Shown here: positions 913-17,051 of the stretch, piece after piece | How the letters are laid out: every line of letters starts with the position of its first letter | Numbering within the stretch: the stretch's first letter is position 1 | Assembly (NCBI GenBank): GCA_035266345.1 | Contig: DATFNP010000042.1 | Coordinates: 9,660 to 73,659 of the forward strand | DNA from: Candidatus Sulfotelmatobacter sp. | Lineage (GTDB): Bacteria > Acidobacteriota > Terriglobia > Terriglobales > Acidobacteriaceae | DNA length: 64,000 bases | Direction of reading: 5' to 3' | Translations under genes and position numbers: made by a program | The notes under the pieces: generated by a model | Seen by the model: only the letters and a program-made list of their open reading frames with translations | Told to the model about the DNA's origin: nothing | Database searches by the model: none

Positions 913-1395
913 TCAACTCGCCGACCTGAATCCGGCTAAGGCCCAGAACACTGAGCGCATCAATGCAAACACAAGCACGACGGGTAGAACCGCAAACGCT
1001 GCATACCCTCTAATTTCGTCATCATGCCAACGTTCCCACCGTGAGGGTAGGGCGAACCGGTGTCCATGTGGAACCTCGTATTCATCTCCACCACAATCTC
1101 CTCCAGCTAAAACCCACGGCTCCTTATCCGATACTCGGCTGCCTGTCTTGTCGTAGCAGTCCACTTTCTGACCCCGTGTGTCTATCGTAAAACCGGAGGA
1201 AAGGTGTACTACCGGCCGCCTGTTGTCAAAATCGGGAGCCACACCTAGGTCATGTGCTGGCGCTTTAGGCCACGAACTGGCGTCCATAGTGGCGAGCGCG
1301 ATTACGAAGACCACCCAGCATATCGCCGTGACAACGTACAACCGTGTTATCCCGCGTCTCCACTGAATGCTCTTCATCGTCTCCGGGGCTGTCAT
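913..1395 (-). CDS. Hypothetical membrane protein (two hydrophobic segments)
   Basis: 160-aa ORF. Its start overlaps the stop of the upstream ORF (ATGA at 1392-1395), which suggests translational coupling. TM-like segments: LYVVTAICWVVFVIALA and AFAVLPVVLVFAL. Confidence 0.55.
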   Translation of the reverse strand: MTAPETMKSIQWRRGITRLYVVTAICWVVFVIALATMDASSWPKAPAHDLGVAPDFDNRRPVVHLSSGFTIDTRGQKVDCYDKTGSRVSDKEPWVLAGGDCGGDEYEVPHGHRFALPSRWERWHDDEIRGYAAFAVLPVVLVFALMRSVFWALAGFRSAS

Positions 1396-1877
1396 TTCCG
1401 GGAGCCTATATCTCTTTTCTCATCGGCAGGCATTCCGACAGTGGAAGAGGGTTTCTTCGGCGGCTGCTCTTGCAAAGGTGTCCCGTCGGCCCATTGCAAT
1501 CTAAGTGCGTAGTGTTTGGGTCGTTTCTTCGGAGCAGGTTCAATTCGCGTTCTGAAGACCTCATCGGCTTTCGCTTTGCGGAATTCCTGCATTCCGTTGT
1601 ACTGCGGGTGCAAGATGACAATTGCACGCGCATAATACGGTTCCAGTTTGTCATTCAGCTTGTAGGTGTCCGATGGACCCTTTTCGATGTCCAGTTTCCA
1701 ACGTGCGTATTCCCACAAGGAGCCGCAAGAATAGGCAGTAAATCCGCGCCTGATGCGTGCCTCAATTCCCTCAACCAGGAAGTCCAGCACCTCAGGGTGA
1801 TTGCGGTGAAACTGATGAAACTCTCGCAGTTCCTGGCAGTCCTTAGAATGCGCTACTAGTTCCTCAATCGTGTGCAT
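1392..1877 (-). CDS. Hypothetical protein (possible cargo of the left element)
   Basis: 161-aa ORF, same orientation as and downstream of the left cas1, coupled to 913-1395. No recognisable family. Confidence 0.55.
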   Translation of the reverse strand: MHTIEELVAHSKDCQELREFHQFHRNHPEVLDFLVEGIEARIRRGFTAYSCGSLWEYARWKLDIEKGPSDTYKLNDKLEPYYARAIVILHPQYNGMQEFRKAKADEVFRTRIEPAPKKRPKHYALRLQWADGTPLQEQPPKKPSSTVGMPADEKRDIGSRK

Positions 1878-2104
1878 AATTCACGGCCCGCAGTTTTAAC
1901 AATAGTCATCACAATCACCCACCGCCAGTCACCACGGTAACCTAAGCAAACCGCGGTCTAACTGCGCTCTGTTCGTTGGTTTAAGAACCGTGCCGTTCCG
2001 CGCCGTTCGCACTGCTTCACATCGAAAACACGGTAAAGCGTGCCATCTGCTGCCGTCTAAGTTGTTGTAACTACGTTTTCACGCGGATTCAAGGTCCCTG
2101 GCAC

Positions 2105-3670
2105 CTATGAGCCGAGCGTCCTTTCGATGTATCTTTCTGGACTTGGTGAAACATCTACCAGTTTCGCCAGCGTCTGCCAGTGCCTCGGATGCGGGCGATA
2201 TCCCTCGCGGATGCGGCCACCGTACCAGCGAGACACTGAGATTTGTCGAGCGATAGCACGTGCTGAGGTCGAGGCGAGGAGTGGTTGAATCTTTTCCGAA
2301 AAGAATTTCTCTGTCAGCCACGCTGGCTGGTCGGACGACTTCCATGAGTGTTGCGCTAAAGCGTTCTTACGTTGAGTGATCGCACGCTTCAACTGGGCTT
2401 CAGGACCATTCGCCGTTTGGCGACCAATCCGCGCGGCATCGAGCATGTTCTTGGTGGCATCCCCAAGGGAGCAGCTGACACAGGTGGTACTGCGGTCTTG
2501 AATAGTTTTCCCGCAGCCGGGACAAATATTTTCCCGCCGGGGTGCCTTAATCGCGGATGGTAGTGGCGGTGCACCCTTTGCTTCTCGCTTGAAACGCTGC
2601 GTTAGCCGCGTAGGCGGCGCAGACTCACGAGCGAGCCTGGCTGAACTCGACCAGAGCGCACGAGCAATCCACTCCGCGAATGGCGCGACCGCACGAGCCC
2701 ACATCGGAGCTGTCTGCGAAAGTTGACAAGCGAAGGATGCGGTCAGCCGAGTGTTCCCATTTCCTAGCTCAAGAAACCATTCTCGCTTAAGCGGTTCGCG
2801 TGTGATCCAATCAAGCAAGTAAGCGTCCACGCGTGCGCGACTTGGCTCCATCAGGTCGCACGCCAAACTGTCGCGCGCAGTTGTGTCCACATGCAGAACA
2901 CCCAAGCCTGGGTCTAGTCCCAGACAAGCCGCTGCAAGACGAGCTTCGGATTCCAGCAGGCAATACAGAAAGTTAAGAATTGCGTTTGCGGGATTTGCGG
3001 CAAGCCGGGGTGATCCCGTCAGCGGAGAGACCCGCGCTCCGAAGCTCTGCCAATGAGCGGGAATTCGTCCAACCTCATTCTTCGGGAAGTTGACAGGTAG
3101 TGTGCTCCACGCCGACCAATAGGATCGGGCGGCTTGTGACTCGATCAACCGGATAGTCGTGATGCTCTCGGCGGCTGGCAATTCCGCCATGAATTGAGCA
3201 ATCTTGTCAGCGGCAGAGGTGTCCAAGAGTTTGTAACGCGCAACCTGTGCCTGCCCTGCGAGCTTCTGGCTGATTAGTTCTCGCGCGATTCGCAGCGCGG
3301 CGCCGGATGAAAGCGCAAGGGCTTGGGCTCGCCGGAGTTTGGCATCCGAAGGGCGGACCGGCCCGGTGACGGCGAGCACCTTACCATCACGTTCAAGCAT
3401 CGCAAAACTTGCATCCTGATCGGCGAGCCAGCGCAGCGCGGCCAGTGATATGAACCCGTCTGAGCCAATGCAGACCAAACGCCTCAGCCCGTGTCCGACG
3501 CGGGCGAGCCTGATCTTGCGGCGCTCCGGCCCGATGCCATCTTCGATTTCCAAGTGGCCGGACTGCATCCGCACCTTGATTCCGAAACCAGTGAGCGTGA
3601 GAACGCCACTTCTGCCAATGAGGGATTTACGGGATACGTTGTGTTGCGGTAGGGTGCCTGAAGCTGCCAT
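2105..3670 (-). CDS. cas1: Cas1-family integrase (casposase-like) with C-terminal Zn-ribbon and HTH extension
   Basis: 521 aa. Cas1 signatures: IESQAARSYW (catalytic E), NPANAILNFLY, GLDPGLGVLHVD (H), SLACDLMEPSRARVD (D/E). C-terminus carries CPGC..CVSC and an HTH-like ARQISVSRWYGGRIREG. Confidence 0.9.
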   Translation of the reverse strand: MAASGTLPQHNVSRKSLIGRSGVLTLTGFGIKVRMQSGHLEIEDGIGPERRKIRLARVGHGLRRLVCIGSDGFISLAALRWLADQDASFAMLERDGKVLAVTGPVRPSDAKLRRAQALALSSGAALRIARELISQKLAGQAQVARYKLLDTSAADKIAQFMAELPAAESITTIRLIESQAARSYWSAWSTLPVNFPKNEVGRIPAHWQSFGARVSPLTGSPRLAANPANAILNFLYCLLESEARLAAACLGLDPGLGVLHVDTTARDSLACDLMEPSRARVDAYLLDWITREPLKREWFLELGNGNTRLTASFACQLSQTAPMWARAVAPFAEWIARALWSSSARLARESAPPTRLTQRFKREAKGAPPLPSAIKAPRRENICPGCGKTIQDRSTTCVSCSLGDATKNMLDAARIGRQTANGPEAQLKRAITQRKNALAQHSWKSSDQPAWLTEKFFSEKIQPLLASTSARAIARQISVSRWYGGRIREGYRPHPRHWQTLAKLVDVSPSPERYIERTLGS

Positions 3671-3747
3671 TGGAGCTCATACCTCCGTGGTAGTTAGGGT
3701 CTGTCGGCTGCTTCGAACAGTCCGGCAGGCCCGCTTCCTTCAATGAA

Positions 3748-4542
3748 CTAATTTGGATTCCGCAATTTGTACCTTCGTCTGGTCCGTTGACGTGTGGGCG
3801 TAGCCCTGCGCGACTGCACGAACACCTCTTCGGGTCTAAGAGATCCGACCAGATTGATGGCTGTACGTGCTTTAACCCCGAAGAGCGCGCCCGCGAGGGC
3901 CCGAGACAGAAACCAGAATTGCTTGTACCGAGTCGAGGGGCGTGCTGACACATCGCAGCGCGGGAAACGGGGATCACGCAACGCATCCACATATTGCTCC
4001 GCGAACTCAGACAAATAACCGGGCAGCGTACTGCCTGGAAGCATGGGCCAAGCCGGAAACTGCTCAACATCTTGGAAACCCCCAGGCTCAATCTCGACTG
4101 TTCGACTCATGAAGGCTTCTTTACAAATATCGCGCACTCGCTCGGGAGTCGTTTTGGGGTCTAGCAAAGAGTTGATTACCTCCGGCTCACCGGGGAACCT
4201 CAGTTCCTCCCTAGCTTCTTCTGCTATACAACGTCGTAACCAATCTCGCGTGACCGGAATCTCGGCATCTTCTATTTCTCGGAGCCTGGTTTCCCTCTGA
4301 GCCTGCGCCAACACACCAGCGCGAATCTCATTCCCAATGATCTCCTCGCGGTGCTGTCTCGTTTCTTCCTTTAGTTGAGCATCCGTTTTCCGGTCCAACT
4401 CTGCTTCTAACTGCTTCTGCTTTAGCCTATTGATCCGCCATCGGGGCATTCCCTCGGCAATCCTCCGAAAGTCCCAATAGAACTGATGGGCGAACGTGTA
4501 GAGCGTTTCTGAGTCTACTTTTGTTGGTCTTCCAGCTCCCAT
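3748..4542 (-). CDS. Conserved element protein of unknown function (264 aa), paralogue of 10391-11158
   Basis: Shared blocks with 10391-11158: N-terminal MGAGRPTKVD..FAHQFYWDFRRIAEG and C-terminal LRDPRFPRCDVSARPSTRYKQFWFLSRALAGALFGV..TAINLVGSLRPEE. It lies immediately upstream of cas1. Confidence 0.75.
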   Translation of the reverse strand: MGAGRPTKVDSETLYTFAHQFYWDFRRIAEGMPRWRINRLKQKQLEAELDRKTDAQLKEETRQHREEIIGNEIRAGVLAQAQRETRLREIEDAEIPVTRDWLRRCIAEEAREELRFPGEPEVINSLLDPKTTPERVRDICKEAFMSRTVEIEPGGFQDVEQFPAWPMLPGSTLPGYLSEFAEQYVDALRDPRFPRCDVSARPSTRYKQFWFLSRALAGALFGVKARTAINLVGSLRPEEVFVQSRRATPTRQRTRRRYKLRNPN

Positions 4543-4662
4543 AATTAAAGGGCAAAAGCTATTTTAGATTTCTTGAAGCTCTTAGGTTACATCCTCTATA
4601 ACTGCCTACAGTATGCACGTTGACTGCTTGTTACGCAAGGGGCAATAACAGGAGGCACCAGG
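4543..4662. promoter_or_regulatory. Divergent control region of the left module, with two AAGGG(G)CAA motifs
   Basis: AAAGGGCAAAA at 4547-4557 and CAAGGGGCAATAA at 4636-4648. The same motif pair is conserved in the right-copy intergenic region while the spacer is diverged. AGGAGG precedes the ATG at 4663. Confidence 0.45.
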
Positions 4663-4899
4663 ATGCACCGAGATGAAACCGTAGTAGCCGTTGGGATGTC
4701 CGAAGCGGCCCGGAGGTTGGGCCTGTCCACTCGCACCGTGGCCACGCTTGTCCTGCGGAACGAGCTTCCGAGCCGAAAGGTGGGCCGCCGGAGAATTATT
4801 CCGGTTATGGCATTGGAGGCCTTCGTTAGGAGTGATCACGGGTCTGGCTGCCTCGGGCCAGCTGCAGCTGCTGAAGGAGAAACTGGCAGAACGGCGTAA
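4663..4899 (+). CDS. Excisionase-family helix-turn-helix DNA-binding protein
   Basis: MSEAARRLGLSTRTVATLVLRNELPSRKVGRRRIIPVMALEAFV matches the Xis/MerR-type HTH pattern (..G.S..T...L...G.LP..K.GRR..I....L..F). Paralogue at 10047-10268. Confidence 0.85.
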   Translation: MHRDETVVAVGMSEAARRLGLSTRTVATLVLRNELPSRKVGRRRIIPVMALEAFVRSDHGSGCLGPAAAAEGETGRTA

Positions 4900-4904
4900 A
4901 AACC

Positions 4905-5459
4905 ATGCCGCACAAACGAAAGCGGCAGGCGGAAACCTCGTCCAGGGGCAGCCGCTCAGCCGCTAAGAACAAAAAACGCTTCAACATTAGTGTCTCGCGT
5001 CACGATGCATCGCGCAAGCGCATTACTGCGTTTGAACTCGTGAGACTTCGACGCCAGGGTCTTGCCTGGAGGGATATTGAAAAACAGTCGGGCATCACTC
5101 GCCGAACAGCAAAGCTTCTTCTCCCACGTGCTTTTTTCCATGACGAGCGTGGCCAGCTTCAGGTGCGTGGGTATGACCGGTATACCCGCACACTGAAAAT
5201 CCCCACGGCTAAGCCAGGGGAATTTAGGTGGCTGCGCGCTCGCGGGAGCCGCCAAGCAAGCCTTGTGGGTGCGTGGAACAACGCAGTCAAGGCCGCGGGG
5301 CGGGGCGATTTCTCACTTATAGATGCCTTTCCGCGCAATATCTTCATAGACGGAGTGCGTCTCGCAACCTCCCATTACGAGGTTTCACGTATCGCTGCGG
5401 CTGCTGCGGAGAGCGATCAGCCGTTCGAGGATCTGTACGCCCTGGCAGGTGCGGTGTAA
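4905..5459 (+). CDS. Conserved element protein of unknown function (184 aa, basic N-terminus, internal HTH-like segment)
   Basis: Same position as 9405-10031 in the other copy, with weak similarity by eye. Basic N-terminus: MPHKRKRQ. HTH-like segment: LAWRDIEKQSGITRRTAKLLL. Confidence 0.65.
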   Translation: MPHKRKRQAETSSRGSRSAAKNKKRFNISVSRHDASRKRITAFELVRLRRQGLAWRDIEKQSGITRRTAKLLLPRAFFHDERGQLQVRGYDRYTRTLKIPTAKPGEFRWLRARGSRQASLVGAWNNAVKAAGRGDFSLIDAFPRNIFIDGVRLATSHYEVSRIAAAAAESDQPFEDLYALAGAV

Positions 5460-5461
5460 CT

Positions 5462-5737
5462 GTGCGCAAACGATGCACACTTTGCGACAGGCCAGCCACA
5501 GAATGGCATCACGTCGGCGGCCGAAATCACTGCAGTTGGTTTCGTGTTCCGCTGTGCACTCTCCATCATCAGCTGGTAACCAGAGCCTATTACAATGCCG
5601 ACCCTGACATGATGAAACCGGCGTCGAACCTTGAGCAGCGGATCAAACGCGCTCGTGAAGGATGCCATGTCTTTTTGTGGTTACTGGATCACCCGGAGGT
5701 AATTGATCCGGAGAAGATTTTGGGAGGTAACGTATGA
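5462..5737 (+). CDS. Small HNH-like zinc-finger protein
   Basis: GTG start in frame. CTLCDRPATEWHHVGGRNHCSWFRVPLCTLHH fits CxxC..HH..G.N..LC..H. Its stop overlaps the polB-fragment start (ATGA at 5734-5737). Paralogue at 9115-9408. Confidence 0.7.
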   Translation: MRKRCTLCDRPATEWHHVGGRNHCSWFRVPLCTLHHQLVTRAYYNADPDMMKPASNLEQRIKRAREGCHVFLWLLDHPEVIDPEKILGGNV

Positions 5738-6477
5738 TTCCTGATCGCTTGCCAATCTTTCTTCGGGCGCACACGGTCAAAGTGCAGAGGCAGCCCAAAG
5801 CTCCATCGAAGAAAGATAGCGCGATGCCTCCACGCTGGCCAGAGCGCGCCCTGCTGTTCGACACTGAGACCCGCACTTCCATTGATCAGACGTTGATGTT
5901 CGGAGTCTACCGTATCTGCAATCTGATCGACGGACAGTACCGTTGCAGCGAAGAGGGTCTCGTCTATGATGAACGACTTTCCAAACAGGAACTCAACACC
6001 ATAGGGACTTTCGTGGCAAACAGTTTTCCCGACATCGAGCTGCCTTGCTTCCCGCCCAAGATACGGTTGCGAGTACATCGCTCGTTCCCCGAATTCATGG
6101 AACACGTGTTCTTTCCCGCGCTGCGTAAGGGATGGCTGATCGTGGGCTTCAACTTGCCATTCGATCTAAGCCGTCTCAGCCTCGATTGGCGGACGCACAA
6201 TGGGGGATTCGCCCTCATTTTTTCAAAGACGTGGTGGAGAAAAACTCAATGTTGGGTTGCGAATCCCTATCGGCCGCCGATCATCCTCGAAGCGAAAGAC
6301 GCGCGGACAGTATTCATGTCTCGTGGCTCAACGAAACGTCCGGCGGAATGGCCGAACGAAGCCAGACTCCTCGACATCGGAACATTGTTATTTTCGCTGT
6401 TCGATCAACATTGCAGTCTGCGCGATTGGTGGTGCCGGATATATTCCTCGATCATGTGCCCGTACGTGAGAGGGTGA
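5734..6477 (+). pseudogene. Family B DNA polymerase, N-terminal (exonuclease domain) fragment
   Basis: Aligns with aa ~40-290 of the 901-aa PolB (LLFDTETRTSIDQTLMFGVYR; VGFNLPFDLSRLSLDW; LLDIGTLLFSLFDQHCSLRD). Homology ends at ~6425-6430. The remainder is antisense to the other polB. Confidence 0.8.
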
Positions 6478-9110
6478 AAACCAGGATCGTCCATCCGGTA
6501 ACGTCGATATCGGCCGCGCCGATCCCGATTGTGAATATCGACACCTTCGAGACTGCGCCACTCGTCTTGCTTGCTCGAAAATGGCACAATCACCATGGGT
6601 TTGTGATCGGGTTTGTTATCAAAATCGAAATCGAATGAGTACGCCTCGGAAGTCATCACCATGAACATGAAATTGTGGGGACGTGCACCCTCCCACATCT
6701 CCAGCATCTTGAACACGTTCCAAGTCGATACGGAGAAGCGCATCATCTCCGGAAGTGAAGCCCAATCCGGTCGTGTGCGTTCTAATCCCAGAAATTCGCG
6801 CACGATGTAATCCCACATCTCGTAAACCCACAGTGGCGCGTCTTTTCTCCAATTTCCCGGGTTGTCTTTTGGGGGATAGAGAAAGCCGATTCCGTGCGCT
6901 TTGGGATTGACGATTTTTGTATCTGTTAATTTCCCGCGTCTGTTCAATACCTTTTCAAGTAGCGCGTATCTTTTGGCTGCTATGCCCACACCCCACAACT
7001 GCCGACGCACCTTTTTCTTCGCGTTGCAGTTGCATCCGCGCACCTCACAAACTCCGGCTTCATCATGCTCGGTTTTGAGTTCATGCGAACATTTGCACAC
7101 GTAATTGTCATCTGTGAGATTCAGTAGGTCCTGCACTACGTCCGGGTCGTACGGATTGAGCGCCTGGAACTTGGCAGTAATTCGGTCAACGTCATCCCAG
7201 GTCAAAATACGTTTACCCTGCGCGCCGGGGGTACGCAGCGTGCCGCCATTCTTCGATGCCACAATCGCCAAACTGTCGGTGTCGCAGTATAGATATGTTC
7301 CTCCGGCTCGCGTCACTTCGACCTCTAGCATCGCGAGCAAAAGCCTTCCGGCGGACGTGATGAGAGTTGCCAGGTAGGGCGCGAGCCACTTTCCCCGTTT
7401 TTCGATTACGCAGGAAGAATCAGGGAAACACTCATCACCGGAGAACACCATCACGCGCCTGGGTTGCTTGAAATGCTCTGGAATCAACTCCACAAAGAAC
7501 CCGTAGATCGAATTGGCCAGGATCTTCAACCAGTAGTAGAGATCGGCATCATCCTTGTTGCGTTTGCGTTCCTCGATAATCTTTGTGAAGAGGTCAACCG
7601 AATCATCATTAGGATCAATCAGGACTTTGCCGCGTAGTCTTACGGCTCTCATCCCCGGCTGCTTTCCGGAGGGCACAATGCGGAATGCCTGTTGAATCTT
7701 GGGAATCTTGCCGGGTTGCTGAACCACTGCGGCCACGAGGTCGGGGCCAGCCATGTAGACGGGTTCGGGATGAGCTGGGTTCGGATGCAAGTAGTTGTTG
7801 CCGATGTTATGGGTCACACCATCGTAGACAGTCCGGATGGGCAGGATGTCCCCATCAGGCAATACGCGGGCCACAAAGTTGAGATTGCGCCATGTGTCAC
7901 GCCGGAAGCATCTTTCCATAGTGATAGTCGCAACGAGGCGCTTTACGTTTTCCGTATCATCGACAAAGTCCAAACGCTCAGCCGTCAAGAATTTAAACAG
8001 CCCAAGGTTTGCACAACAGGATGGATACTCGGAGGTGTAATCAACAGGGGCCACGGGCACAACTTCGTGGCGGATTCGGCATTCGGAGCGACCGCCGTAG
8101 TAGCTCTGCATCCAACACCCAAGCTTTTCGTTGGGCACCTTGAACTTGACCTCAGGTCGTTCGATCCCCATTGCCTTCAGGTACGCTTTGGCAATACTCG
8201 CAGGTGAATAGGCATTCCAAGGCTTCAAATCTAGATCGGCATGCCTGTCAAATTCCTGCTTACAGGCGTTCAGCAATGCAATCGTGCAGCGGACATCCTG
8301 ACGGCAGTGTTCAATTTCCTCAGGTGTGACTCCGCCACTCGGATCATGATCATCTTTCTGGGGTAGGTTCTGCCCTTTGAAAGGACCGCCTTTGTTGTCA
8401 CAGGCAGTCCTAAGCGAGTGCGACTTGTTGTAAAGCACCCAGAGCAAGGTCCGAAGGTCGAGAAAGTGGATGTTTCTACCTGCGTCCTTCCACTCGTGTT
8501 GATTCTTCTTCCAAGGTCGCCACAGCTTGATTATCTGTTTCTTGCTGTCTATTGGTGTGATCAGGATGCGGGGATAATTGCAATTTTCGGGGCCGTCGGC
8601 ATATTGCATCAGCACGAGCGACCATTCGCCCTTATTCCCGTCCGTCCAGTCCAGGGTGATCCGCGTGAGATCGTAGCCGAGATTAAAGCCGACCACCATG
8701 GAACCGTCTCGCTTCAGCGCGGGCCAGAGTACCTTCTCCATGAACTGGGTGCGCGAGTAAAGCGGGAAGCGGGGAGGAAATGACGGTACATCGGAGACCG
8801 CCGTCTCCGTGTAAGTTTTGAGAACTTTGAGATCTTTCACGGGCAGGTCGTCAGCATGGAAAATCCCCTCTTCGATGACCTCATATTTCTGTCCGACTAG
8901 CTTGCTGCAGCGCCGCCATACGCCAAAGGTGAGTGACTGATCTACTGTGACCCGGCTTTCGGTATCGAACGCGAGGATGTCCGGCCACTTGGGTTCGCCC
9001 AGGGCATTGTTCTCCCCTTCGGTATTGGCGGTCTTTTTCTTCTTTTTCTTTCTCTCTATCGGTACGGCAAGAGCGCGCAAAAAGAGATCGTGAGTCTCAA
9101 TCATTTCCAA
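6405..9110 (-). CDS. polB: Family B DNA polymerase (3'-5' exonuclease plus polymerase domains)
   Basis: 901 aa. Motifs: Exo I AFDTES; Exo II VGFNLGYDLTRI; motif A VDYTSEYPS; motif B KILANSIYGFF; motif C YCDTDSLAIV; KxY IAAKRYALL. Confidence 0.92.
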   Translation of the reverse strand: MEMIETHDLFLRALAVPIERKKKKKKTANTEGENNALGEPKWPDILAFDTESRVTVDQSLTFGVWRRCSKLVGQKYEVIEEGIFHADDLPVKDLKVLKTYTETAVSDVPSFPPRFPLYSRTQFMEKVLWPALKRDGSMVVGFNLGYDLTRITLDWTDGNKGEWSLVLMQYADGPENCNYPRILITPIDSKKQIIKLWRPWKKNQHEWKDAGRNIHFLDLRTLLWVLYNKSHSLRTACDNKGGPFKGQNLPQKDDHDPSGGVTPEEIEHCRQDVRCTIALLNACKQEFDRHADLDLKPWNAYSPASIAKAYLKAMGIERPEVKFKVPNEKLGCWMQSYYGGRSECRIRHEVVPVAPVDYTSEYPSCCANLGLFKFLTAERLDFVDDTENVKRLVATITMERCFRRDTWRNLNFVARVLPDGDILPIRTVYDGVTHNIGNNYLHPNPAHPEPVYMAGPDLVAAVVQQPGKIPKIQQAFRIVPSGKQPGMRAVRLRGKVLIDPNDDSVDLFTKIIEERKRNKDDADLYYWLKILANSIYGFFVELIPEHFKQPRRVMVFSGDECFPDSSCVIEKRGKWLAPYLATLITSAGRLLLAMLEVEVTRAGGTYLYCDTDSLAIVASKNGGTLRTPGAQGKRILTWDDVDRITAKFQALNPYDPDVVQDLLNLTDDNYVCKCSHELKTEHDEAGVCEVRGCNCNAKKKVRRQLWGVGIAAKRYALLEKVLNRRGKLTDTKIVNPKAHGIGFLYPPKDNPGNWRKDAPLWVYEMWDYIVREFLGLERTRPDWASLPEMMRFSVSTWNVFKMLEMWEGARPHNFMFMVMTSEAYSFDFDFDNKPDHKPMVIVPFSSKQDEWRSLEGVDIHNRDRRGRYRRYRMDDPGFHPLTYGHMIEEYIRHHQSRRLQC

Positions 9111-9114
9111 TCCC

Positions 9115-9408
9115 TCATTTCGAGTTGCCCTCTAGTGCTTTTTCTTTCTCGATGTCTGAAGCAATTTCCTTTTCGAGCATGTCAAGCAGCATCCACATGA
9201 ACAGAACCGTCATCTTCAGGGCACGGATGAGCCTGTGAAAGCGATTCGGAGTGGAGCGTAGATCAATTCCGGCAGCCCGCTGTCTCGCATGGAAAATTAC
9301 TTGACACCTGGCGCAGAGCGACATGGTGAACCATGCAATGAAATTCTGCCCCCCGACGTGATGCTGCGTCACATCACAGGTGCTACCGCAGAGATTGCAC
9401 CGTCTCAT
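9115..9408 (-). CDS. Small HNH-like zinc-finger protein
   Basis: CNLCGSTCDVTQHHVGGQNFIAWFTMSLCARCQVIFH fits CxxC..HH..G.N..LCxxC..H. Its start overlaps the stop of 9405-10031. Confidence 0.8.
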   Translation of the reverse strand: MRRCNLCGSTCDVTQHHVGGQNFIAWFTMSLCARCQVIFHARQRAAGIDLRSTPNRFHRLIRALKMTVLFMWMLLDMLEKEIASDIEKEKALEGNSK

Positions 9409-10031
9409 GCGGCACCCCCGAAGTACGGGATGACCTGTTCACTACCGAAATGTTCGGGGAGATTGTCTTGCTCGCCCAACCTCCGAAGGGTTTTCGGGTC
9501 GGTCAGAAGCTCGTACCCTTGGACCGTTACGCCTCGCCATTTATCAAGCGCAGTAAGATCGCCTCTTTGAAAACGGAAGACATCGTTGCGGAAACGTGCA
9601 ATCTCGTTCCTGGCCTTTGAGCCTTCGATTTTGATTATGATTGGACCACTCGGGCCGGGAACTTCCATCCGGCGGACATAACGATCAGCGATGGCGCGGA
9701 TTCTGCCGTTCCTGTCCTTTTTGAATGCCTTGGGTATGTATTTCCAAAAGTCGCGGGTCGTGACGCCTCGGCCCTCTGCAGCTTGCGAAGCCGTGAGCTT
9801 GTGGTCGCGCAACATATCCGCATGCGCCGCCAGTGCATCCCCACGTTTCCTTAGCTCCGCCGGAGAGAGTAACCATGGGCGAGGCGCGCGATAGTGCTTA
9901 GAAACTGCGGCCGTGGCACGAGCAATTTCACCCGCGCGCGCAGATCGCGCTAAACTTGAGTTGATTGGTTTAGTTTTTCTGGCCCCCGGTAGCCTGGCGC
10001 GGCGAGCCTGGGACCTTCTTTTTGACGGCAT
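9405..10031 (-). CDS. Conserved element protein of unknown function (208 aa, basic N-terminus)
   Basis: Positional counterpart of 4905-5459, translationally coupled to the HNH-like gene. N-terminus: MPSKRRSQARRAR. Confidence 0.7.
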   Translation of the reverse strand: MPSKRRSQARRARLPGARKTKPINSSLARSARAGEIARATAAVSKHYRAPRPWLLSPAELRKRGDALAAHADMLRDHKLTASQAAEGRGVTTRDFWKYIPKAFKKDRNGRIRAIADRYVRRMEVPGPSGPIIIKIEGSKARNEIARFRNDVFRFQRGDLTALDKWRGVTVQGYELLTDPKTLRRLGEQDNLPEHFGSEQVIPYFGGAA

Positions 10032-10046
10032 TGGCTCACCCCGCGC

Positions 10047-10268
10047 TCATGCTGTTTCCCTCAAAGCTGCTGCTCTAGTGCGACCAGGCCCATGGTTGGC
10101 TTGTACGAAAGCCTCCAAAGCCACAACGGGGATAATCCGTCGGCGACCTACCTTGCGGCTTGGTAGCTCCCGCCGCAGAACAAGAGTCGCTACTGTTCGA
10201 GCGGACAGCCCCAACCGCCGGGCTGCCTCAACCATCCCCACCGCAAGCACAGTTTCATCTCGGTGCAT
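10047..10268 (-). CDS. Excisionase-family helix-turn-helix DNA-binding protein
   Basis: MHRDETVLAVGMVEAARRLGLSARTVATLVLRRELPSRKVGRRRIIPVVALEAFV is nearly identical to the 4663-4899 product. Confidence 0.85.
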   Translation of the reverse strand: MHRDETVLAVGMVEAARRLGLSARTVATLVLRRELPSRKVGRRRIIPVVALEAFVQANHGPGRTRAAALRETA

Positions 10269-10390
10269 CTTCGAGCCTCCTATTTATTGCCCTTGCAGTG
10301 GCTAACCAGCAAGGCGCATAATATAGTTGTGTTGTACGGGATGATGACAATCACGGTCAATGATAGAGAAGCAGTTTTTGCCCTTTAATT
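10269..10390. promoter_or_regulatory. Divergent control region of the right module, with two TTGCCCTT motifs
   Basis: TTATTGCCCTTG at 10284-10295 and TTTTGCCCTTT at 10376-10386, the reverse complement of the motifs in 4543-4662. Confidence 0.45.
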
Positions 10391-11158
10391 ATGGGAGCCG
10401 GTAGACCACAAAAAGCCGACCCTGGATCGGTCTACGCGTTCGCGCACCAGTTTTATTGGGATTTCCGGAGGATCGCCGAGGGGAATCTTCGGTGGACACT
10501 GGACAGGGTAAAGCTTCGACAGTCGACCATCGAGCTTGAGAACTTGAACATCCCCGCAGAGGCAGCCAAGAAAGCTGAGGAAGAAATTCAAGCTGGTCTC
10601 TTAGAAGCATCCAAAAAGCAGGAACGGTGCCGGGAGCTGGAGGATCAACTCTCCTCAACACGGCCACTGTGGTCCCGTATCGTAAGAGAGGATGCTATGA
10701 AGGAAGTCAGGATACCGGGTGAACCCGGAGTCCTTAAGGAATTGCTGGACCCGGCAACGACTCCGGAGCGGATACGAGAGGTCTGCAGAGAAGCAGTCAT
10801 GACTAGGAAGGTTGAAGTTGAACCCGGCGTGCAGAAGGAAATAGAAGTAGAGGCCTGGCCCATTCCTCCAGGCAGTCCATTTCCCACATATTTGTCTCAG
10901 TACGCAGAACAGTACGTTGCTGCCTTGCACGACCCGCGTTTCCCTCGCTGTAATGTTTCAATCCGCCCGTCGACCCGACTGAAGCAATTCTGGTTTCTAT
11001 CTCGCGCCCTCGCGGGTGCGCTTTTCGGGGTTACCACACGCACAGCCATCAATCTGGTCGGCTCCCTCCGACCCGAAGAGATTTTCGAAGAATCTCGGGA
11101 TGCAAAACCGGCACGCAAACGGGTGAGGCGAAAATACAAATCGCGGCCCGCAAGCTAA
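10391..11158 (+). CDS. Conserved element protein of unknown function (255 aa), paralogue of 3748-4542
   Basis: MGAGRPQKADPGSVYAFAHQFYWDFRRIAEG ... LHDPRFPRCNVSIRPSTRLKQFWFLSRALAGALFGVTTRTAINLVGSLRPEE. Confidence 0.8.
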   Translation: MGAGRPQKADPGSVYAFAHQFYWDFRRIAEGNLRWTLDRVKLRQSTIELENLNIPAEAAKKAEEEIQAGLLEASKKQERCRELEDQLSSTRPLWSRIVREDAMKEVRIPGEPGVLKELLDPATTPERIREVCREAVMTRKVEVEPGVQKEIEVEAWPIPPGSPFPTYLSQYAEQYVAALHDPRFPRCNVSIRPSTRLKQFWFLSRALAGALFGVTTRTAINLVGSLRPEEIFEESRDAKPARKRVRRKYKSRPAS

Positions 11159-11236
11159 GCTTCTTGAAGTAAAACGGGCCTGCCGACTGTTAGTAGCAGC
11201 CGACAAGCCCTGACCACCACAGGAGGCATTACTCCA

Positions 11237-12763
11237 ATGGCAGCTTCGCCCACGCTACCGCACTCGCACGCCCTCCGCAAATCTGGCGTCCTGGTCTTGA
11301 ATGGCTATGGCATCCGCGTCCAGGTGAACGCCGGTCATTTGCTCTTGCATGATGGGATAGCCGACGACCGCTGCACCATCCGCCTGCCCCGTGTAAACCA
11401 TGGTCTGAAAAGGTTGGTGCTGATCGGGAGCGACGGTTTCATTACGCTAGAAGCCCTGCGCTGGCTGGCTGATCAGGACGCGAGTTTCGTGATGCTTGAC
11501 CGCAGAGGCAAGGTGCTTGCCGTTACTGGTCCTGTTTCTCCATCGGATGCCAAGCTCCGCCGAGCACAGGCGCTCGCAATCGGCAACGGGACGGCGCTCA
11601 AGATTTCCAAGGAACTCATCTCCCAAAAGCTCGCCGGGCAGGAGCTACTCGTGCGGGATATGCTGCATGATTCCGCGGCAGCAGACGCAATTGCTCGATT
11701 CAAGGATGAACTACAAAGCGCGGAAGGTATAGAAGTCGTGCGGCTGATCGAAGCGCAGGCTGCGCGCTGCTATTGGCAATCGTGGGCTAACATACCGATT
11801 CACTGGCCGCGCAAGGACGAGCGCCGTGTGCCGGAACATTGGAAGCGATTTGGTTCCCGCATCTCACCCTTGACCCACAGTCCACGCCTTGCGGCCAACC
11901 CGCCGAATGCCTTGAGCAACCTGATCTATTCGATCCTGGAGGCGGAATCGAGACTAGCTGCATCGGCGATGGGCCTTGATCCCGGCATCGGCTTGCTCCA
12001 CGTGGACACCCCCAACAGGGATTCTCTCGCCTGTGACATCATGGAGCCGATACGCGCGAAGTGTGATGCCTTTGTTCTTGATTGGCTTCAGCGAGAGCCG
12101 CTCCGCCGCTCCGACTTTTGGGAGGACCGTAATGGGAACTGCCGCATTGCGTCACCGTTGGCCATCAAGCTCTGCGAGACTTCGGACACGTGGCGCAAAC
12201 TAGTAGCTCCGGTAGCAGAATATGTCGCGCAAGAGATTTGGTCCTCCGCGTCCAAACCAAGTTCCGTATCCAAGATTGCTCGACAATTGATCGCAACTCG
12301 CCTTACGCAGCGCTACAAACGCGAAGCAAAAGGTGGCGACCTACCAAAAGTTGGCCAGCCTAAACCCGAACATGTTTGCAGCGATTGCGGAGTCAAGATT
12401 CCAGTCGATGGGCAGCGCTGCTGGAAATGCTCAAAGCGGGTTACGGGTGTCAACTTCAAAGCCGGGCGTAAGTGCGCACAGCAACCGGAGCACCTAGCAA
12501 AGCGGGCAGCCACCATGCGGCGGCACAAGCAGGCCATTCGAAATTGGAAACCCTCAGACCTCCCGGCGTGGCTCACCCGCGATGTCTACCTAAAGCGGAT
12601 TCAGCCCGCGCTTGCCAGCGTCGCGAAGGCGCAAATCGGCGCCCTGCTGGGCGTAAGCGAGCCGTACTCATCGGACATTCAGGCGGGCAGGCGTATTCCG
12701 CATCCGAGGCACTGGCAGGCGCTGGCCCAACTGGTCGGTCTTCCGCCTGGCGGTGCTCATTGA
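11237..12763 (+). CDS. cas1: Cas1-family integrase (casposase-like) with C-terminal Zn-ribbon and HTH extension
   Basis: 508 aa. Signatures: IEAQAARCYW, NPPNALSNLIY, GLDPGIGLLHVD, SLACDIMEPIRAKCD. C-terminus carries CSDC..CWKC and the HTH-like IGALLGVSEPYSSDIQAG. Roughly two-thirds identical by eye to 2105-3670. Confidence 0.92.
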   Translation: MAASPTLPHSHALRKSGVLVLNGYGIRVQVNAGHLLLHDGIADDRCTIRLPRVNHGLKRLVLIGSDGFITLEALRWLADQDASFVMLDRRGKVLAVTGPVSPSDAKLRRAQALAIGNGTALKISKELISQKLAGQELLVRDMLHDSAAADAIARFKDELQSAEGIEVVRLIEAQAARCYWQSWANIPIHWPRKDERRVPEHWKRFGSRISPLTHSPRLAANPPNALSNLIYSILEAESRLAASAMGLDPGIGLLHVDTPNRDSLACDIMEPIRAKCDAFVLDWLQREPLRRSDFWEDRNGNCRIASPLAIKLCETSDTWRKLVAPVAEYVAQEIWSSASKPSSVSKIARQLIATRLTQRYKREAKGGDLPKVGQPKPEHVCSDCGVKIPVDGQRCWKCSKRVTGVNFKAGRKCAQQPEHLAKRAATMRRHKQAIRNWKPSDLPAWLTRDVYLKRIQPALASVAKAQIGALLGVSEPYSSDIQAGRRIPHPRHWQALAQLVGLPPGGAH

Positions 12764-12770
12764 CCCCATG

Positions 12771-12792
12771 ATGAGTGTAAACGGGATTTTGC
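12771..12792 (+). repeat. 22-bp direct repeat, copy A (ATGAGTGTAAACGGGATTTTGC)
   Basis: Matches 13487-13508 at 20 of 22 positions. Begins 8 nt after the right cas1 stop codon. Confidence 0.85.
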
Positions 12793-12815
12793 AACATTTG
12801 AGCAAGGCCACTGAC

Positions 12816-13385
12816 TTACGGTGAACGAGGAAGGCCCCTTCCCACTTCAATAATCATGTAGGGTCCTGTTGGAAATTCGCGTCCATCCGCCTCGATCACA
12901 AACCTCACCATCTCGCCTTTTAGCTTACCGCGAGCCGCCGTGGCTTCGGACCCTATCGAGAGAGTCTGACCGGGCCAAAGTCGCTTGTCCACCAGTTTGG
13001 ATTGTGCGATCCCTAGAGGGTATGGGCGACAATAGGTTCCCGCCGTATCAAAGAGCGTTTTCCAACTGTGCGTTCCCGTGTCCAACTGCTCAAGTCTATA
13101 CGGGACGCTCACTCCATGAGCGCCTGCGTCCGAAACAAATTCACATCTCTCGATTGTCGCTGGGAAGAGCCCGAAGTTTGTAAGGTGCGCATCAATGAGT
13201 TGCGTGATGCCCGGTATTCCAGTGTCGCCGTCGGAGACGGTCACATCAGCGTGCAGTCCAAGCGAGACGAAGTGGCCATATTGCGAGTGATGGTGAATTT
13301 GCAGGGCTCCGAGCGCAAGTACGAGAAACGAAAACACGGCAACCAAAGTCAAGGTCACGGGCCGCATTCTAAGAGCACGTTGCAT
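12816..13385 (-). CDS. Hypothetical secreted or membrane-anchored protein (189 aa)
   Basis: N-terminal hydrophobic signal-like segment VTLTLVAVFSFLVLALGAL. Lies entirely between the two 22-bp direct repeats. Confidence 0.55.
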   Translation of the reverse strand: MQRALRMRPVTLTLVAVFSFLVLALGALQIHHHSQYGHFVSLGLHADVTVSDGDTGIPGITQLIDAHLTNFGLFPATIERCEFVSDAGAHGVSVPYRLEQLDTGTHSWKTLFDTAGTYCRPYPLGIAQSKLVDKRLWPGQTLSIGSEATAARGKLKGEMVRFVIEADGREFPTGPYMIIEVGRGLPRSP

Positions 13386-13486
13386 AGCAGATCATGATAG
13401 ACCCGACTCGATGACCCAACCAACGCAGCAGCTTGTGTTTAGCAGGACAATTGACGAAATCAGGCGATTACACGTTTTGACGGTCA

Positions 13487-13508
13487 ATGAGTGATAACGG
13501 GATTTTGC
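13487..13508 (+). repeat. 22-bp direct repeat, copy B (ATGAGTGATAACGGGATTTTGC)
   Basis: Matches 12771-12792 at 20 of 22 positions. Confidence 0.85.
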
Positions 13509-13521
13509 GCCAACCCACGCC

Positions 13522-13944
13522 CTAATTTCCGTCAGGGCATTTGCAGGGAGTCGGAGGCGGTGGTGGCGGCGGTGGCGCTACTAGGAACGTATTCAACTGC
13601 GCAGTTGGAAGCTCGTAGAGGCCGCCGACCCTCAACCAGCAATACAACGCGAGCGCAGCCACCGGAATGCCGATCAGCAACGAGACTGCAAGTTTCCTCG
13701 AAGGTAGATGAAGCGGCTCGATTGCCTTCCGGGCTATGAAGAACCTTCCCATCGGCAGCGCCAATCCCACGACCATGATCAAAAACATCAGGATCGACCT
13801 GACCATCTGTGTGGTCATTCCCGATCCTGAAATCGCGTTGTAAAGAAACTCAGGGAACGTAAGCATGAGTTCCCCACGTGCCAGCGCTCCAACAAGGGGA
13901 CGGATGAAAACTGGAAACGCCCAGAACCACACGATGACAAACAT
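13522..13944 (-). CDS. Hypothetical integral membrane protein with poly-Pro C-terminus
   Basis: Several hydrophobic segments (MFVIVWFWAFPVFI, ILMFLIMVVGLAL, LLIGIPVAALALYCW). The tail has a PPPPPPPP run. The start was chosen at the internal Met because the upstream part of the ORF is a G-rich, Arg/Pro-rich stretch that is unlikely to be coding. Confidence 0.5.
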   Translation of the reverse strand: MFVIVWFWAFPVFIRPLVGALARGELMLTFPEFLYNAISGSGMTTQMVRSILMFLIMVVGLALPMGRFFIARKAIEPLHLPSRKLAVSLLIGIPVAALALYCWLRVGGLYELPTAQLNTFLVAPPPPPPPPTPCKCPDGN

Positions 13945-14257
13945 CACGAACCACGCAAGGAGAGAGCGCTTCGCATAGCCCGCGCTTCTCGCTCTACCAG
14001 CTAGCCCCGCGCCTCGCGCGGGCGGGCGGGCCCGGCGGGCTGGGTGTTCCAGCGGGCGGGTTCGGGGTTCCTGGGAGCGCGCGGGCGGGGGCGGCCAGGT
14101 CAAAATCGGGGGGTATGGCCGTCCATCCGGCGCTGTGGTATTACGGTGCCCCGAGTGACCCCGCTGGGTGGGGGGTGGAGCCGTTTTTCCCGTAGCCACA
14201 TCCTACCCGAACCAGTATTGACGCCATCCCCCTCAGCCCCTAACATTCCTCTAACGC

Positions 14258-16615: not shown

Positions 16616-16619
16616 AAAG

Positions 16620-16982
16620 AATCGAGTTTCCTACCGCGCCGCCGCCACACTTTGTGAGACGAACCGCAACCCCGCCGCCAGGCAAAGCCCCAATCTCCGC
16701 GGTGTAACGGTAAAACAACTGCAGCCCTTCCAGGCATCCGGCGTCGAGTTGGTAGTAGATATTCTCGGTCAGATAACTGCGGACTTCCGTCTCGCTGAGC
16801 CCAGGCGCGGCGCCCATTCTTGGGCGATCTGATTTAGACTGGCCGACTCCAGTCCATGATCGCGCGATTCGCCAAAAAACGCCGCCAGATCGAGCGAAGG
16901 ATCCGCCTCGCCCAGGGCCTGCTCCCGCACCGCACAATCCCAACTTAATCGCTCGACATTTTCGCCGGGGTGGCCGGATTTC
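16620..16982 (-). pseudogene. Remnant of an MqnA-like (futalosine-pathway chorismate dehydratase family) gene: C-terminal part only, frameshifted
   Basis: One frame gives LDLAAFFGESRDHGLESASLNQIAQEWAPRLG. After a +1 shift, another gives LSETEVRSYLTENIYYQLDAGCLEGLQLFYRYTAEIGAL, which resembles an MqnA C-terminus from memory. No N-terminal two-thirds is present. Confidence 0.4.
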
Positions 16983-17051
16983 TCACCCCTCTATAGCTAT
17001 CCCAGTCAAACGGGCCTATCCTGGCCACAGCGCCGGCCAAGTTCGATTCGC

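Follow-up and report, generated by a model that had tools for sequence, protein, structure and literature searches.

Introduction

Why does a member of the Acidobacteriota carry, side by side and in mirror image, two genes for Cas1-type integrases, each accompanied by a gene for a family B DNA polymerase (PolB), on DNA that contains no array of the short palindromic repeats, clustered and regularly interspaced, that are known as CRISPR? The question is raised by a 64-kb stretch of Candidatus Sulfotelmatobacter DNA, called the window below to denote the whole stretch that was analyzed, in which the genes concerned occupy positions 2105–12763. Casposons are self-synthesizing DNA transposons that are inserted by an integrase of the Cas1 family, the casposase, and a preliminary description of the window, made from its sequence, had called the two gene sets casposon-like, leaning toward an undescribed casposon family or a related Cas1-dependent system. 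As set out below, the region is very probably the inner part of two defective casposons that are members or near neighbors of casposon family 3, a bacterial family, and the intact relatives of these elements in other genomes suggest how their targets may be chosen.

The gene calls are based on an open reading frame (ORF) listing and translation of the window, and in both modules, A on the left and B on the right, they agree with the genes named in the preliminary description, as does the acidobacterial character of the host. Both copies have the same order, namely Cas1, an accessory protein without a name, an excisionase-type helix-turn-helix (HTH) protein, a second, putative HTH protein, a small HNH-like protein, and PolB. 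The statement that one six-gene module occurs twice thus stands for the gene order, but not for the left-hand polymerase, which is an N-terminal fragment. Between A and B the Cas1 proteins are 53% identical, less than the two-thirds first estimated, the 255/264-amino acid (aa) accessory proteins 57%, the small excisionase-type HTH proteins 85%, the other HTH proteins 26%, the HNH-like proteins 35%, and the PolB N-termini 34%.

Tandem Repeats Finder detected nothing CRISPR-like in the 64 kb, as had been stated, and a search for cas2, applied to the genes adjoining both Cas1 genes, gave no match among them. An Rfam scan of the window returned one transfer RNA (tRNA) only. Within the modules, NCBIfam and PADLOC scans recognized only Cas1 and the excisionase-type HTH protein; among the PADLOC defense models those for Cas1 matched, along with a single weak mad1 match to the small HTH protein, and none matched PolB, the HNH-like protein, or the proteins U208 and U255 described later.

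Cas1 Proteins and Family Placement

Both Cas1 homologues are full-length, as first proposed, and are supported by profile searches against Pfam Cas_Cas1: Cas1_A (521 aa; 2105–3670, minus strand) at 3.4e-41 and Cas1_B (508 aa; 11237–12763, plus strand) at 1.3e-38. The catalytic E, H, and D..E signature that had been noted is kept when the two are aligned with reference Cas1 proteins and casposases. In each, the Cas1 core is followed by a CxxC..CxxC zinc ribbon and a C-terminal region, which in Cas1_B contains an HTH (HTH_31, 2e-4). Cas1_A has weak zinc-ribbon matches at residues 380–400 and no HTH match in the domain search; we infer its C-terminal HTH from an end-to-end alignment with Cas1_B. 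The best solved relative of Cas1_B is 6OPM, the Methanosarcina mazei casposase.

In blastp comparisons with the Cas1 alignment published with the 2014 casposon description, both window proteins are closest to the casposase of AceAut-C1, a family 3 element, at 43–44% identity (E 2.5e-67 for Cas1_A and 2.2e-73 for Cas1_B). Other family 3 members follow at ~1e-60 (Saccharopolyspora, SacSpi), 1e-46 to 1e-51 (StrAlb), and 1e-43 to 1e-47 (NitAL212), then family 2 at best 1e-37, HenMar at ~1e-30 (a family 3 protein weaker than the best family 2 match), family 1 at 1e-17, and CRISPR Cas1 at best 1e-13 to 1e-15. A neighbor-joining tree, of the kind that the preliminary description had called for, groups the proteins with the casposases of family 3 and not with CRISPR Cas1: within the family 3 clade, the window pair and two other acidobacterial casposases form the sister group of AceAut. 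The Cas1 of AceAut-C1 has been described as a C-terminal fusion of a zinc-binding domain and an HTH, and the published core order of families 2 and 3 is Cas1-HTH, (wHTH-HEAT, with wHTH a winged HTH), HTH, HNH, and PolB-HTH (PMC4046053). The core order of the window modules agrees with it. Judged from these sequences, the elements appear to be members, or near neighbors, of the bacterial family already described as family 3, nearest to AceAut-C1.

Intact Relatives, Their Ends, and Their Duplications

The two copies could be understood through intact elements elsewhere. PolB_B, the right-hand polymerase, has more than 1100 homologues in the protein collection, the identical protein being that of a Candidatus Sulfotelmatobacter metagenome-assembled genome (MAG). 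A scan in which each GTDB species was represented by one genome, with PolB as the query, found relatives in 359 species genomes, nearly all of them Acidobacteriota (Terriglobia), with a few in bins labeled Binatia, Dormiibacterota, Gemmatimonadota, and Thermomicrobia. In the loci fetched for comparison, which carry L numbers below, Cas1 lies 2–4 kb upstream of PolB on the opposite strand in about 70 of 79.

Inverted repeats that directly flank the six-gene modules were found neither in the window nor in L005, L006, or close relatives; the only matches of that search were the homologous 3' coding ends of Cas1, which were rejected as terminal inverted repeats (TIRs), the true ends being 1.4–5 kb beyond the core. 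Downstream of the Cas1 stop codon no conserved sequence was seen across the loci. It was a comparison of near-identical copies that revealed the true ends. A 15.8-kb segment, 99.95% identical, is shared by L048 and L049, which come from different MAGs; it sits at different sites and in different orientations, with TIRs of about 49 bp at its ends and a flanking 14-bp direct repeat that is TAGAGCAGTTTGAC in one copy and GTCAAACGGGCGAA in the other.

A systematic scan then gave TIR pairs around 10–18 kb in about 40 loci, from which 31 elements with TIRs of 35–140 bp were curated. The 14-bp target-site duplication (TSD) is perfect in 30 of the 31 and matches at 13 of 14 positions in the remaining one. 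The TIR consensus is GGGGTAGTGTAT.GCGACGGCAAAAGTGCTACACCCC, with variants that carry GGGGATTTTGC, and this is the pattern of the published elements NitAL212-C1, MetMaz-C1, and MetFor-C1; for NitAL212-C1 the reported TIR is GGGGTATGTTAACTTCTCCCAAACGCCGTACACTT, with a 14-bp repeat (PMC4046053 supplement). A TIR profile matches 62 of 85 loci, with at least three matches in 11. The term casposon, already used in the preliminary description, is therefore borne out: Cas1 groups with casposases, and intact relatives have casposon-type TIRs and 14-bp TSDs. Intact members are 10–18 kb long and consist of the core plus variable cargo between TIRs of about 37 bp or longer, many of them including the excisionase-type HTH gene. 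In the cultured strain Tunturiibacter gelidiferens X5P2 (L058) the module is present without a TIR match, so this strain cannot be proposed as the carrier of an intact element.

In three of the loci with at least three TIR matches, two TIRs stand back to back exactly 14 nt apart (4041/4056 in L026, 16480/16495 in L027, and 19685/19700 in L081), which identifies them as tandem arrays that have one target duplication in common. Likewise, L039 and L049 are in tandem at the valyl-tRNA synthetase gene valS on contig CAWBGI010000002.1, where the 14-mer GTCAAACGGGCGAA occurs three times, the pattern expected if the promoter-proximal copy was used again.

Several observations on these relatives concern their own history. 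The similarities of Cas1 and PolB are discordant (L045/L046 versus L008–L010/L035); some elements, for example, have a Cas1 with 74% identity to Cas1_B and a PolB with only ~42% identity to PolB_B. The near-identical L008 and L009 diverge abruptly at the Cas1 stop codon (~6955), and together these features point to modular recombination between co-resident casposons. PolB is split by 1.4–2.6 kb in L044, L062, and L081, extra PolB fragments occur in L026, L043, L051, L064, and L071, and there are further polymerase-to-polymerase junctions among the copies. With so many copies interrupted or fragmentary, decay like that in the window is common in the lineage. Locus L012 (contig CAVXKJ010000003.1) has an acidobacterial-type casposon with a PolB 80% identical to that of the window in a MAG labeled Candidatus Micrarchaeota archaeon, a label that is probably a binning error and not a sign of an archaeal host.

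Outer Ends of the Two Window Copies

With the ends of intact relatives in hand, one outer end could be assigned to each window copy. TIR_B, GGGTAGGATGTGGCTACGGGAAAAACGGCTCCACCCC, lies at 14169–14208 (minus strand; nhmmer with a profile from the 31 elements, E 8e-4) and is almost the same as the TIRs of L007, L009, and L035, elements with polymerases 80–81% identical to PolB_B. It is followed by the target 14-mer GAACCAGTATTGAC at 14209–14222. On the other side, the contig was extended leftward through a look-up of the 160-aa cargo protein of element A. TIR_A was found there beyond genes for McrB and McrC, ~160 bp upstream of valS and at about −4251 in window numbering, and reads in window orientation GAAAAGAAGGGTCAAACACCCCCC then GGGGTTAGCTACATATGCGGGAAAAAGTGTCCCAC. 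The elements thus reach beyond the Cas1-to-Cas1 span in which they had first been placed, to 14169–14208 on the right and to ~4.25 kb left of the window.

TIR_A and TIR_B are of different types, and the flanking 14-mers differ as well, the left one being GTCAAACACCCCCC and the right one GAACCAGTATTGAC. The block therefore did not insert as a unit but stems from two independent insertions. A second copy of the right-hand 14-mer occurs neither in the window nor in L086 (the locus of the window contig), L088, or L089. Each window copy is incomplete, with one TIR, no matching TSD, and a truncated PolB.

Polymerase Genes and the Tail-to-Tail Junction

The right-hand polymerase PolB_B (901 aa; 6405–9110, minus strand) has exonuclease motifs I–III, motifs A, B, and C, and KxY, so the complete set of family B motifs first reported is present in this copy. 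It is not present in the left one: PolB_A (5734–6423, plus strand) is an N-terminal fragment of ~230 aa, detected by tblastn and alignment, with exonuclease motifs I–II only. PolB_B, in turn, is short by ~125 C-terminal residues relative to its relatives, which are mostly 960–1050 aa long (11 relatives of 965–1053 aa in the alignment), and PolB_A aligns with relatives over the first ~230 residues only, its ORF running on to 6477 in unrelated sequence.

In tblastn searches with intact relatives, the homology of PolB_B stops at 6414 (residue ~895 of ~1023) and that of PolB_A at 6420–6423, and the same searches gave no further polymerase fragments in the window. The positions 6414–6423 are accordingly a tail-to-tail junction of two truncated polymerase genes. 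Because the junction is identical in four independent assemblies, two from JGI metagenomes and two from Logan, built from separate sequencing runs, an assembly chimera could be ruled out.

How the Two Copies May Have Come Together

These data are consistent with a simple sequence of events. Element A, with McrBC as cargo, would have inserted at the valS promoter left of the window, and element B at the promoter of the Ser/Thr kinase gene that begins at 14258. As valS points left and the kinase right, with the Cas1 side of each element next to its own promoter, the promoters point away from each other, and for this reason the elements face each other with their polymerase ends inward. A later illegitimate deletion or rearrangement may then have removed both inner ends and fused PolB_A, at codon ~230, to PolB_B, at codon ~895. 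Since non-homologous positions are joined in opposite orientation, we infer an illegitimate join and not homologous recombination. The mirror-image layout, which had been taken as a distinctive design, can thus be traced to two independent insertions, with different TIRs and 14-mers, and one illegitimate junction.

Both Cas1 ORFs are still open. With one end each and no complete polymerase, neither copy would be mobile on its own. In the closest genomes found, rarA lies upstream of the kinase and mqnA, dprA, and topA lie downstream of it, and neither valS nor DinB is a neighbor. An empty site joining valS and the kinase was not found; the empty site recovered was that of the kinase side, described below.

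Promoter-Shaped Targets and the valS Hotspot

Once the target sites are put in a common orientation, nearly every element has a flank with nine bases followed by TTGAC(N), 17–18 nt, and TAnnnT. After orthologous sites were collapsed, 13 of 15 independent targets read TTGAC-N16-18-TAnnnT, compared with a background of 4.1% of the 3067 TTGAC sites in the fetched loci that have such a hexamer (binomial P ~1e-16). The target of element B, together with the predicted kinase promoter, spans 14209–14246 (plus strand): the last five bases of GAACCAGTATTGAC start the −35 box, the promoter reads TTGACG-17-TAACAT at 14218–14246, and the kinase ATG at 14258 comes 11 nt after the −10 hexamer. Upstream of valS the target is GAAAAGAAGGGTCAAAC plus 7 nt and the predicted promoter TTGACC-18-TAAGAT. 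An independent promoter scanner calls both targets of the window contig. At 13 of the 15 sites, an ORF of the same orientation begins downstream of the −10-like hexamer, a count that has no formal control and is supportive only.

The valS promoter is used repeatedly. A casposon lies directly upstream of valS in at least 11 fetched loci (L030, L033, L038, L039, L046, L048, L051, and L057, also L021, L056, and L077) and on the window contig (L086, 15648–15686). At this hotspot a conserved "leader" of the form GATCTTACAGGCG..GAAAAGAAGG precedes the duplicated GTCAAAC+7 across many species of Terriglobia. For the kinase promoter, the orthologous gene in L090 (92% protein identity) has the same promoter and a homologous 14-mer with unrelated DNA upstream, and on these grounds L090 is an empty site.

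A model that fits these observations places the target immediately upstream of a promoter of the sigma-70 type, with the TTGAC of the −35 box as the last bases of the duplicated 14-mer; with the 14-mer ending there, the promoter would be left intact. By analogy with casposases that have been studied, the enzyme would join the 3' ends of the element to the target with a stagger of 14 bp, and gap repair would produce the 14-bp duplication. The promoter-proximal copy could then be hit again, giving tandem arrays. In its strict form the model states that the casposons pick sigma-70-type promoters as their "leader", with insertion upstream at a distance of exactly 9 bp from the −35 TTGAC, and that a correctly spaced −10 element is required, a proposal that we rate at about even chances. 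The promoter could be read by the HTH of the casposase, by an accessory protein that recognizes the −35 box, or by promoter-bound RNA polymerase. If the promoter architecture is indeed read, this would be a new mode of target selection for integrases of the Cas1 family and a bacterial parallel to leader-dependent spacer integration. In this model the promoter would remain reusable, so that arrays build up at hotspots such as valS. In a limited search, the core casposon literature contained no mention of promoters as targets, and no link of casposons with Acidobacteria or Terriglobia; reports elsewhere are possible.

Alternative Explanations and the Weight of the Evidence

The Cas1 genes might be the remnant of a CRISPR-Cas adaptation module beside an unrelated polymerase-carrying element, the array and cas2 having been lost or lying outside the window. 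The Pfam, TIGRFAM, and PADLOC models of CRISPR Cas1 do match these proteins, but they match all casposases too. Given similarity to casposases at 1e-73 versus 1e-13 to 1e-15 at best for CRISPR Cas1, the position of the proteins in family 3 of the tree, the lack of an array in the 64 kb, a Cas1-PolB linkage that is kept in about 70 of 79 related loci, and TIRs that enclose Cas1 and PolB both, such an origin is scarcely credible. It is also very improbable that the two copies work together as a composite or as a unit domesticated by the host, serving defense or repair beside McrBC, for instance, or that the block from TIR_A to TIR_B moves as one. The block does have two outward-facing casposon ends with McrBC inside, both Cas1 ORFs are intact with their catalytic residues, and the arrangement is stable across four samples. 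However, the differing 14-mers, TIRs of two types, one PolB reduced to a 230-aa stump and the other truncated, the recognition of Cas1 alone by PADLOC, and relatives that are single-element in layout, with many other decayed copies, all speak against it. A new family apart from families 1–4, the preference of the preliminary description, is unlikely in our view. In its favor are an identity of only 43–44% to the nearest described Cas1 (AceAut), the great divergence of PolB from polymerases that have been solved or are modeled in Pfam, additional conserved genes for the excisionase-type HTH and for U255, whose fold is unmatched, and a host phylum and promoter targeting without mention in the casposon literature searched; yet published family 3 is equally diverse, the window Cas1 proteins nest inside it as sister to AceAut with the same C-terminal architecture of zinc-binding domain and HTH, the TIR pattern and the 14-bp TSD are those of NitAL212-C1, and the core gene order is unchanged. 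The same features, from Cas1 similarity to TSD length, lead us to place the elements within family 3 or beside it instead of in an undescribed family or a related Cas1-dependent system.

As for the targets, the promoter pattern could be a matter of survivorship, in which the casposase reads only GTCAA(A)C and harmless insertions persist. The motif in the TSD is short and many of the sites are orthologous valS promoters, which makes this explanation possible, if doubtful: intergenic TTGAC sequences without a −10 element should be equally harmless, yet they are not seen as targets, and a −10-like hexamer at 16–18 nt accompanies 13 of the 15 collapsed targets against 4.1% of TTGAC sites at large. 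Returning to the reading of two defective family 3 casposons with promoter-directed integration, several points weigh against it. The promoters are predicted from sequence. Each window copy lacks one of its ends and a second TSD, so their casposon status rests on the intact relatives and not on the copies themselves. The family placement comes from a 20-sequence neighbor-joining tree and a 2014 reference set, and it draws on Cas1, TIR, TSD, and gene order. PolB_B scores 1.5e-5 with Pfam DNA_pol_B_2, just below the cutoff, which the relative P0007 (1023 aa, 81% identical to PolB_B) passes; a PolB profile search of PDB sequences reached E ~0.04 only; and the AlphaFold2 (AF2) model of PolB_B, built from a 13-sequence alignment, is poor, with a predicted local distance difference test score (pLDDT) of 45. 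A Foldseek search with this model gave weak matches to DEDD exonucleases and to Pol zeta, Pol alpha, and Pol II, which are consistent with a family B polymerase but not decisive. The predicted C-terminal HTH of intact casposon polymerases was not found by Pfam in these relatives, in which the region is HTH-like by eye. Because valS and the kinase gene are not neighbors in the closest genomes, their joining must have involved more than a small local deletion. Finally, three TIR-like sequences of the window, two of them (W1 and W2) to the right of Cas1_B and one at 16966–17003, are without explanation in this scheme.

Comparison with Known Systems and Significance

Among described elements, AceAut-C1 and family 3 are the closest, sharing the casposase type with its zinc-binding domain and HTH, a bacterial host, intergenic integration, and the order of the HNH-like, putative HTH, and PolB genes of the core, and with NitAL212-C1 the lineage has in common a TIR of the form GGGGTA...A-tract...TACAC and a 14-bp TSD. 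For the published family 3 elements, "intergenic" is the only description given of the sites (PMC4046053). The acidobacterial lineage differs in that it is present in hundreds of Acidobacteriota genomes, as opposed to a handful of single elements, in its defined targets at the −35 boxes of promoters, with tandem arrays and a hotspot at valS, and in its additional genes for the excisionase-type HTH and U255; the window copies are, moreover, truncated.

Family 2, represented by AciBoo-C1 of Aciduliprofundum boonei and MetMaz-C1 of M. mazei, likewise has the core order Cas1-HTH, HTH, HNH, PolB, TSDs of 14–15 bp, and TIRs that start with GGG and contain an A-tract, and it includes the best solved match, 6OPM. 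The features reported for this family include site-specific integration beside a "leader-like" sequence and the formation of tandem arrays at a single site (PMC9939771). On the other hand, its hosts are archaea, the 3' ends of tRNA genes are its targets, its Cas1 is only 24–32% identical to those of the window, and its wHTH-HEAT protein was not recognized in the window modules, in which the fold of U255 remains unmatched.

CRISPR-Cas adaptation uses a homologous integrase, and the parallel extends to a recognized upstream sequence followed by a duplicated unit and to proximal reinsertion, which builds arrays sharing the 14-mer. In contrast to it, the present locus has no repeat array or spacers and no Cas2 match beside Cas1 among the neighbors scanned, the inserted unit is a 10–18 kb element with its own polymerase, and Cas1 falls outside the CRISPR clades. 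Transposon Tn7 inserts at attTn7, a safe-harbor site downstream of glmS. The casposons resemble Tn7-type transposons in that they integrate at a conserved site next to a housekeeping gene that is essential, in this case valS, and leave it undisrupted, but they differ in transposase family and chemistry, and their target lies upstream of a promoter, with several unrelated promoters in use.

The window locus itself is an ordinary decayed mobile-element site, to be annotated as two casposon remnants and not as a new system. The lineage outweighs the locus by virtue of its abundance in Acidobacteriota, its crisp ends, the evidence of its recent movement, its common tandem arrays, and its sequence-defined, promoter-like targets, which together supply an extensive natural data set, along with a testable rule, on the choice of sites by a Cas1-family integrase, a question that underlies the origin of the leader-repeat arrangement of CRISPR. 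In soil bacteria, these casposons also carry defense (McrBC) and signaling cargo and cause local rearrangements.

Accessory and Cargo Genes

The accessory slot next to Cas1 holds U264 in module A (264 aa; 3748–4542, minus strand), which has no family match and is the 57% identical counterpart of U255 in module B (255 aa; 10391–11158, plus strand). Homologues of U255 form 539 clusters, all without names. Its confident AF2 model (pLDDT 80) has no structural match in PDB or BFVD with E below 1 and would represent an orphan fold tied to casposons. The preliminary description had counted this protein as a conserved part of the module; since the slot is filled by unrelated proteins in other elements, it is a variable accessory gene and not a core one. 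The divergent excisionase-type HTH proteins were named correctly from the start, with Pfam HTH_17 matches in both modules: 5e-10 in A (78 aa; 4663–4899, plus strand) and 2.9e-10 in B (73 aa; 10047–10268, minus strand), the latter also matching the TIGR01764 excisionase domain at 1.3e-7.

The proteins U184 (184 aa; 4905–5459, plus strand) and U208 (208 aa; 9405–10031, minus strand) occupy the position of the "HTH" gene of families 2 and 3. An alignment of this family from 26 elements has a basic N-terminus and an HTH-like segment, "LSLSxAARxxGVxxxTxxKY", and weak, sub-threshold HTH matches are scattered among its members, features by which we read it as the putative conserved casposon "HTH" protein. 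One of the two unnamed families that had been cited as a sign of novelty is therefore a probable known component in its usual slot. The putative small HNH-like nucleases lie at 5462–5737 (plus strand) in A and at 9115–9408 (minus strand) in B and have the pattern CxxC..HH..N..CxxC in common. The former matches the HNH-type profile RecA_dep_nuc at 4.6e-5, below the cutoff, the latter has no significant Pfam match, and homologues give weak HNH, DUF968, and HNHc_6 matches.

Between Cas1_A and the McrBC genes, which are outside the window, are two cargo ORFs of 160 aa (913–1395, minus strand) and 161 aa (1392–1877, minus strand), without Pfam, NCBIfam, or PADLOC matches; with the outer TIR of element A lying on the far side of McrC, both fall inside that element. 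The McrBC genes themselves, between Cas1_A and the outer TIR at 11571–15489 of L086 (about −175 to −4093 in window numbering), encode a McrB-like AAA protein of 896 aa and a McrC of 414 aa. This casposon ferries a defense system, and McrBC is ordinary cargo. Elsewhere, the apparently recently mobile casposon L048 has cargo at 1777–3513, 4109–5647, 13389–14336, and 14523–17018, which comprises two large serine recombinases, a GGDEF response regulator, and a PAS/GAF hybrid histidine kinase.

Further Possible Casposon Traces and Other Features of the Window

Two direct TIR-like repeats, W1 (12765–12800) and W2 (13482–13515), both on the plus strand and of the form ATGAGTG..AACGGGATTTTGC (repeat families D4 and D5), lie between Cas1_B and TIR_B. 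Each is preceded by TTGAC and resembles the GGGGATTTTGC-type TIRs. W1 begins 2 nt past the Cas1_B stop codon, and the 14 nt before W2 are identical to the 3' end of the Cas1 gene in L009 and L034. As element ends, these repeats (at 12771/13487) were rejected, their orientation and flanks fitting no pair; they are possibly remnants of further copies. A 189-aa ORF between them (12816–13385, minus strand) has no Pfam match.

Downstream of the kinase, positions 16966–17003 (plus strand) read ...CTCTATAGCTATCCC then AGTCAAACGGGCCT, also written ...TATAGCTATCCC then AGTCAAACGGGCCT. The terminal 12 nt are those of the L043 TIR, and the nhmmer TIR profile did not recover this end; it is tentatively assigned as the probable solo end of a third casposon. 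It adjoins a ~300-bp mqnA-like (VitK2_biosynth) fragment at 16616–16936, the intact gene of which is present in L090, where homology downstream of the kinase stops near 16914. The fragment next to the solo end suggests a casposon-associated rearrangement on this side of the kinase too. Taken with W1 and W2, the solo end marks the locus as one that has been repeatedly hit and rearranged.

Unrelated to the casposons, the segment 26001–27000 of the window has a strong A-over-T skew of 0.395, which coincides with a 33-nt A-rich tandem repeat at 26172–26234 within an ORF of 363 aa (25165–26256).

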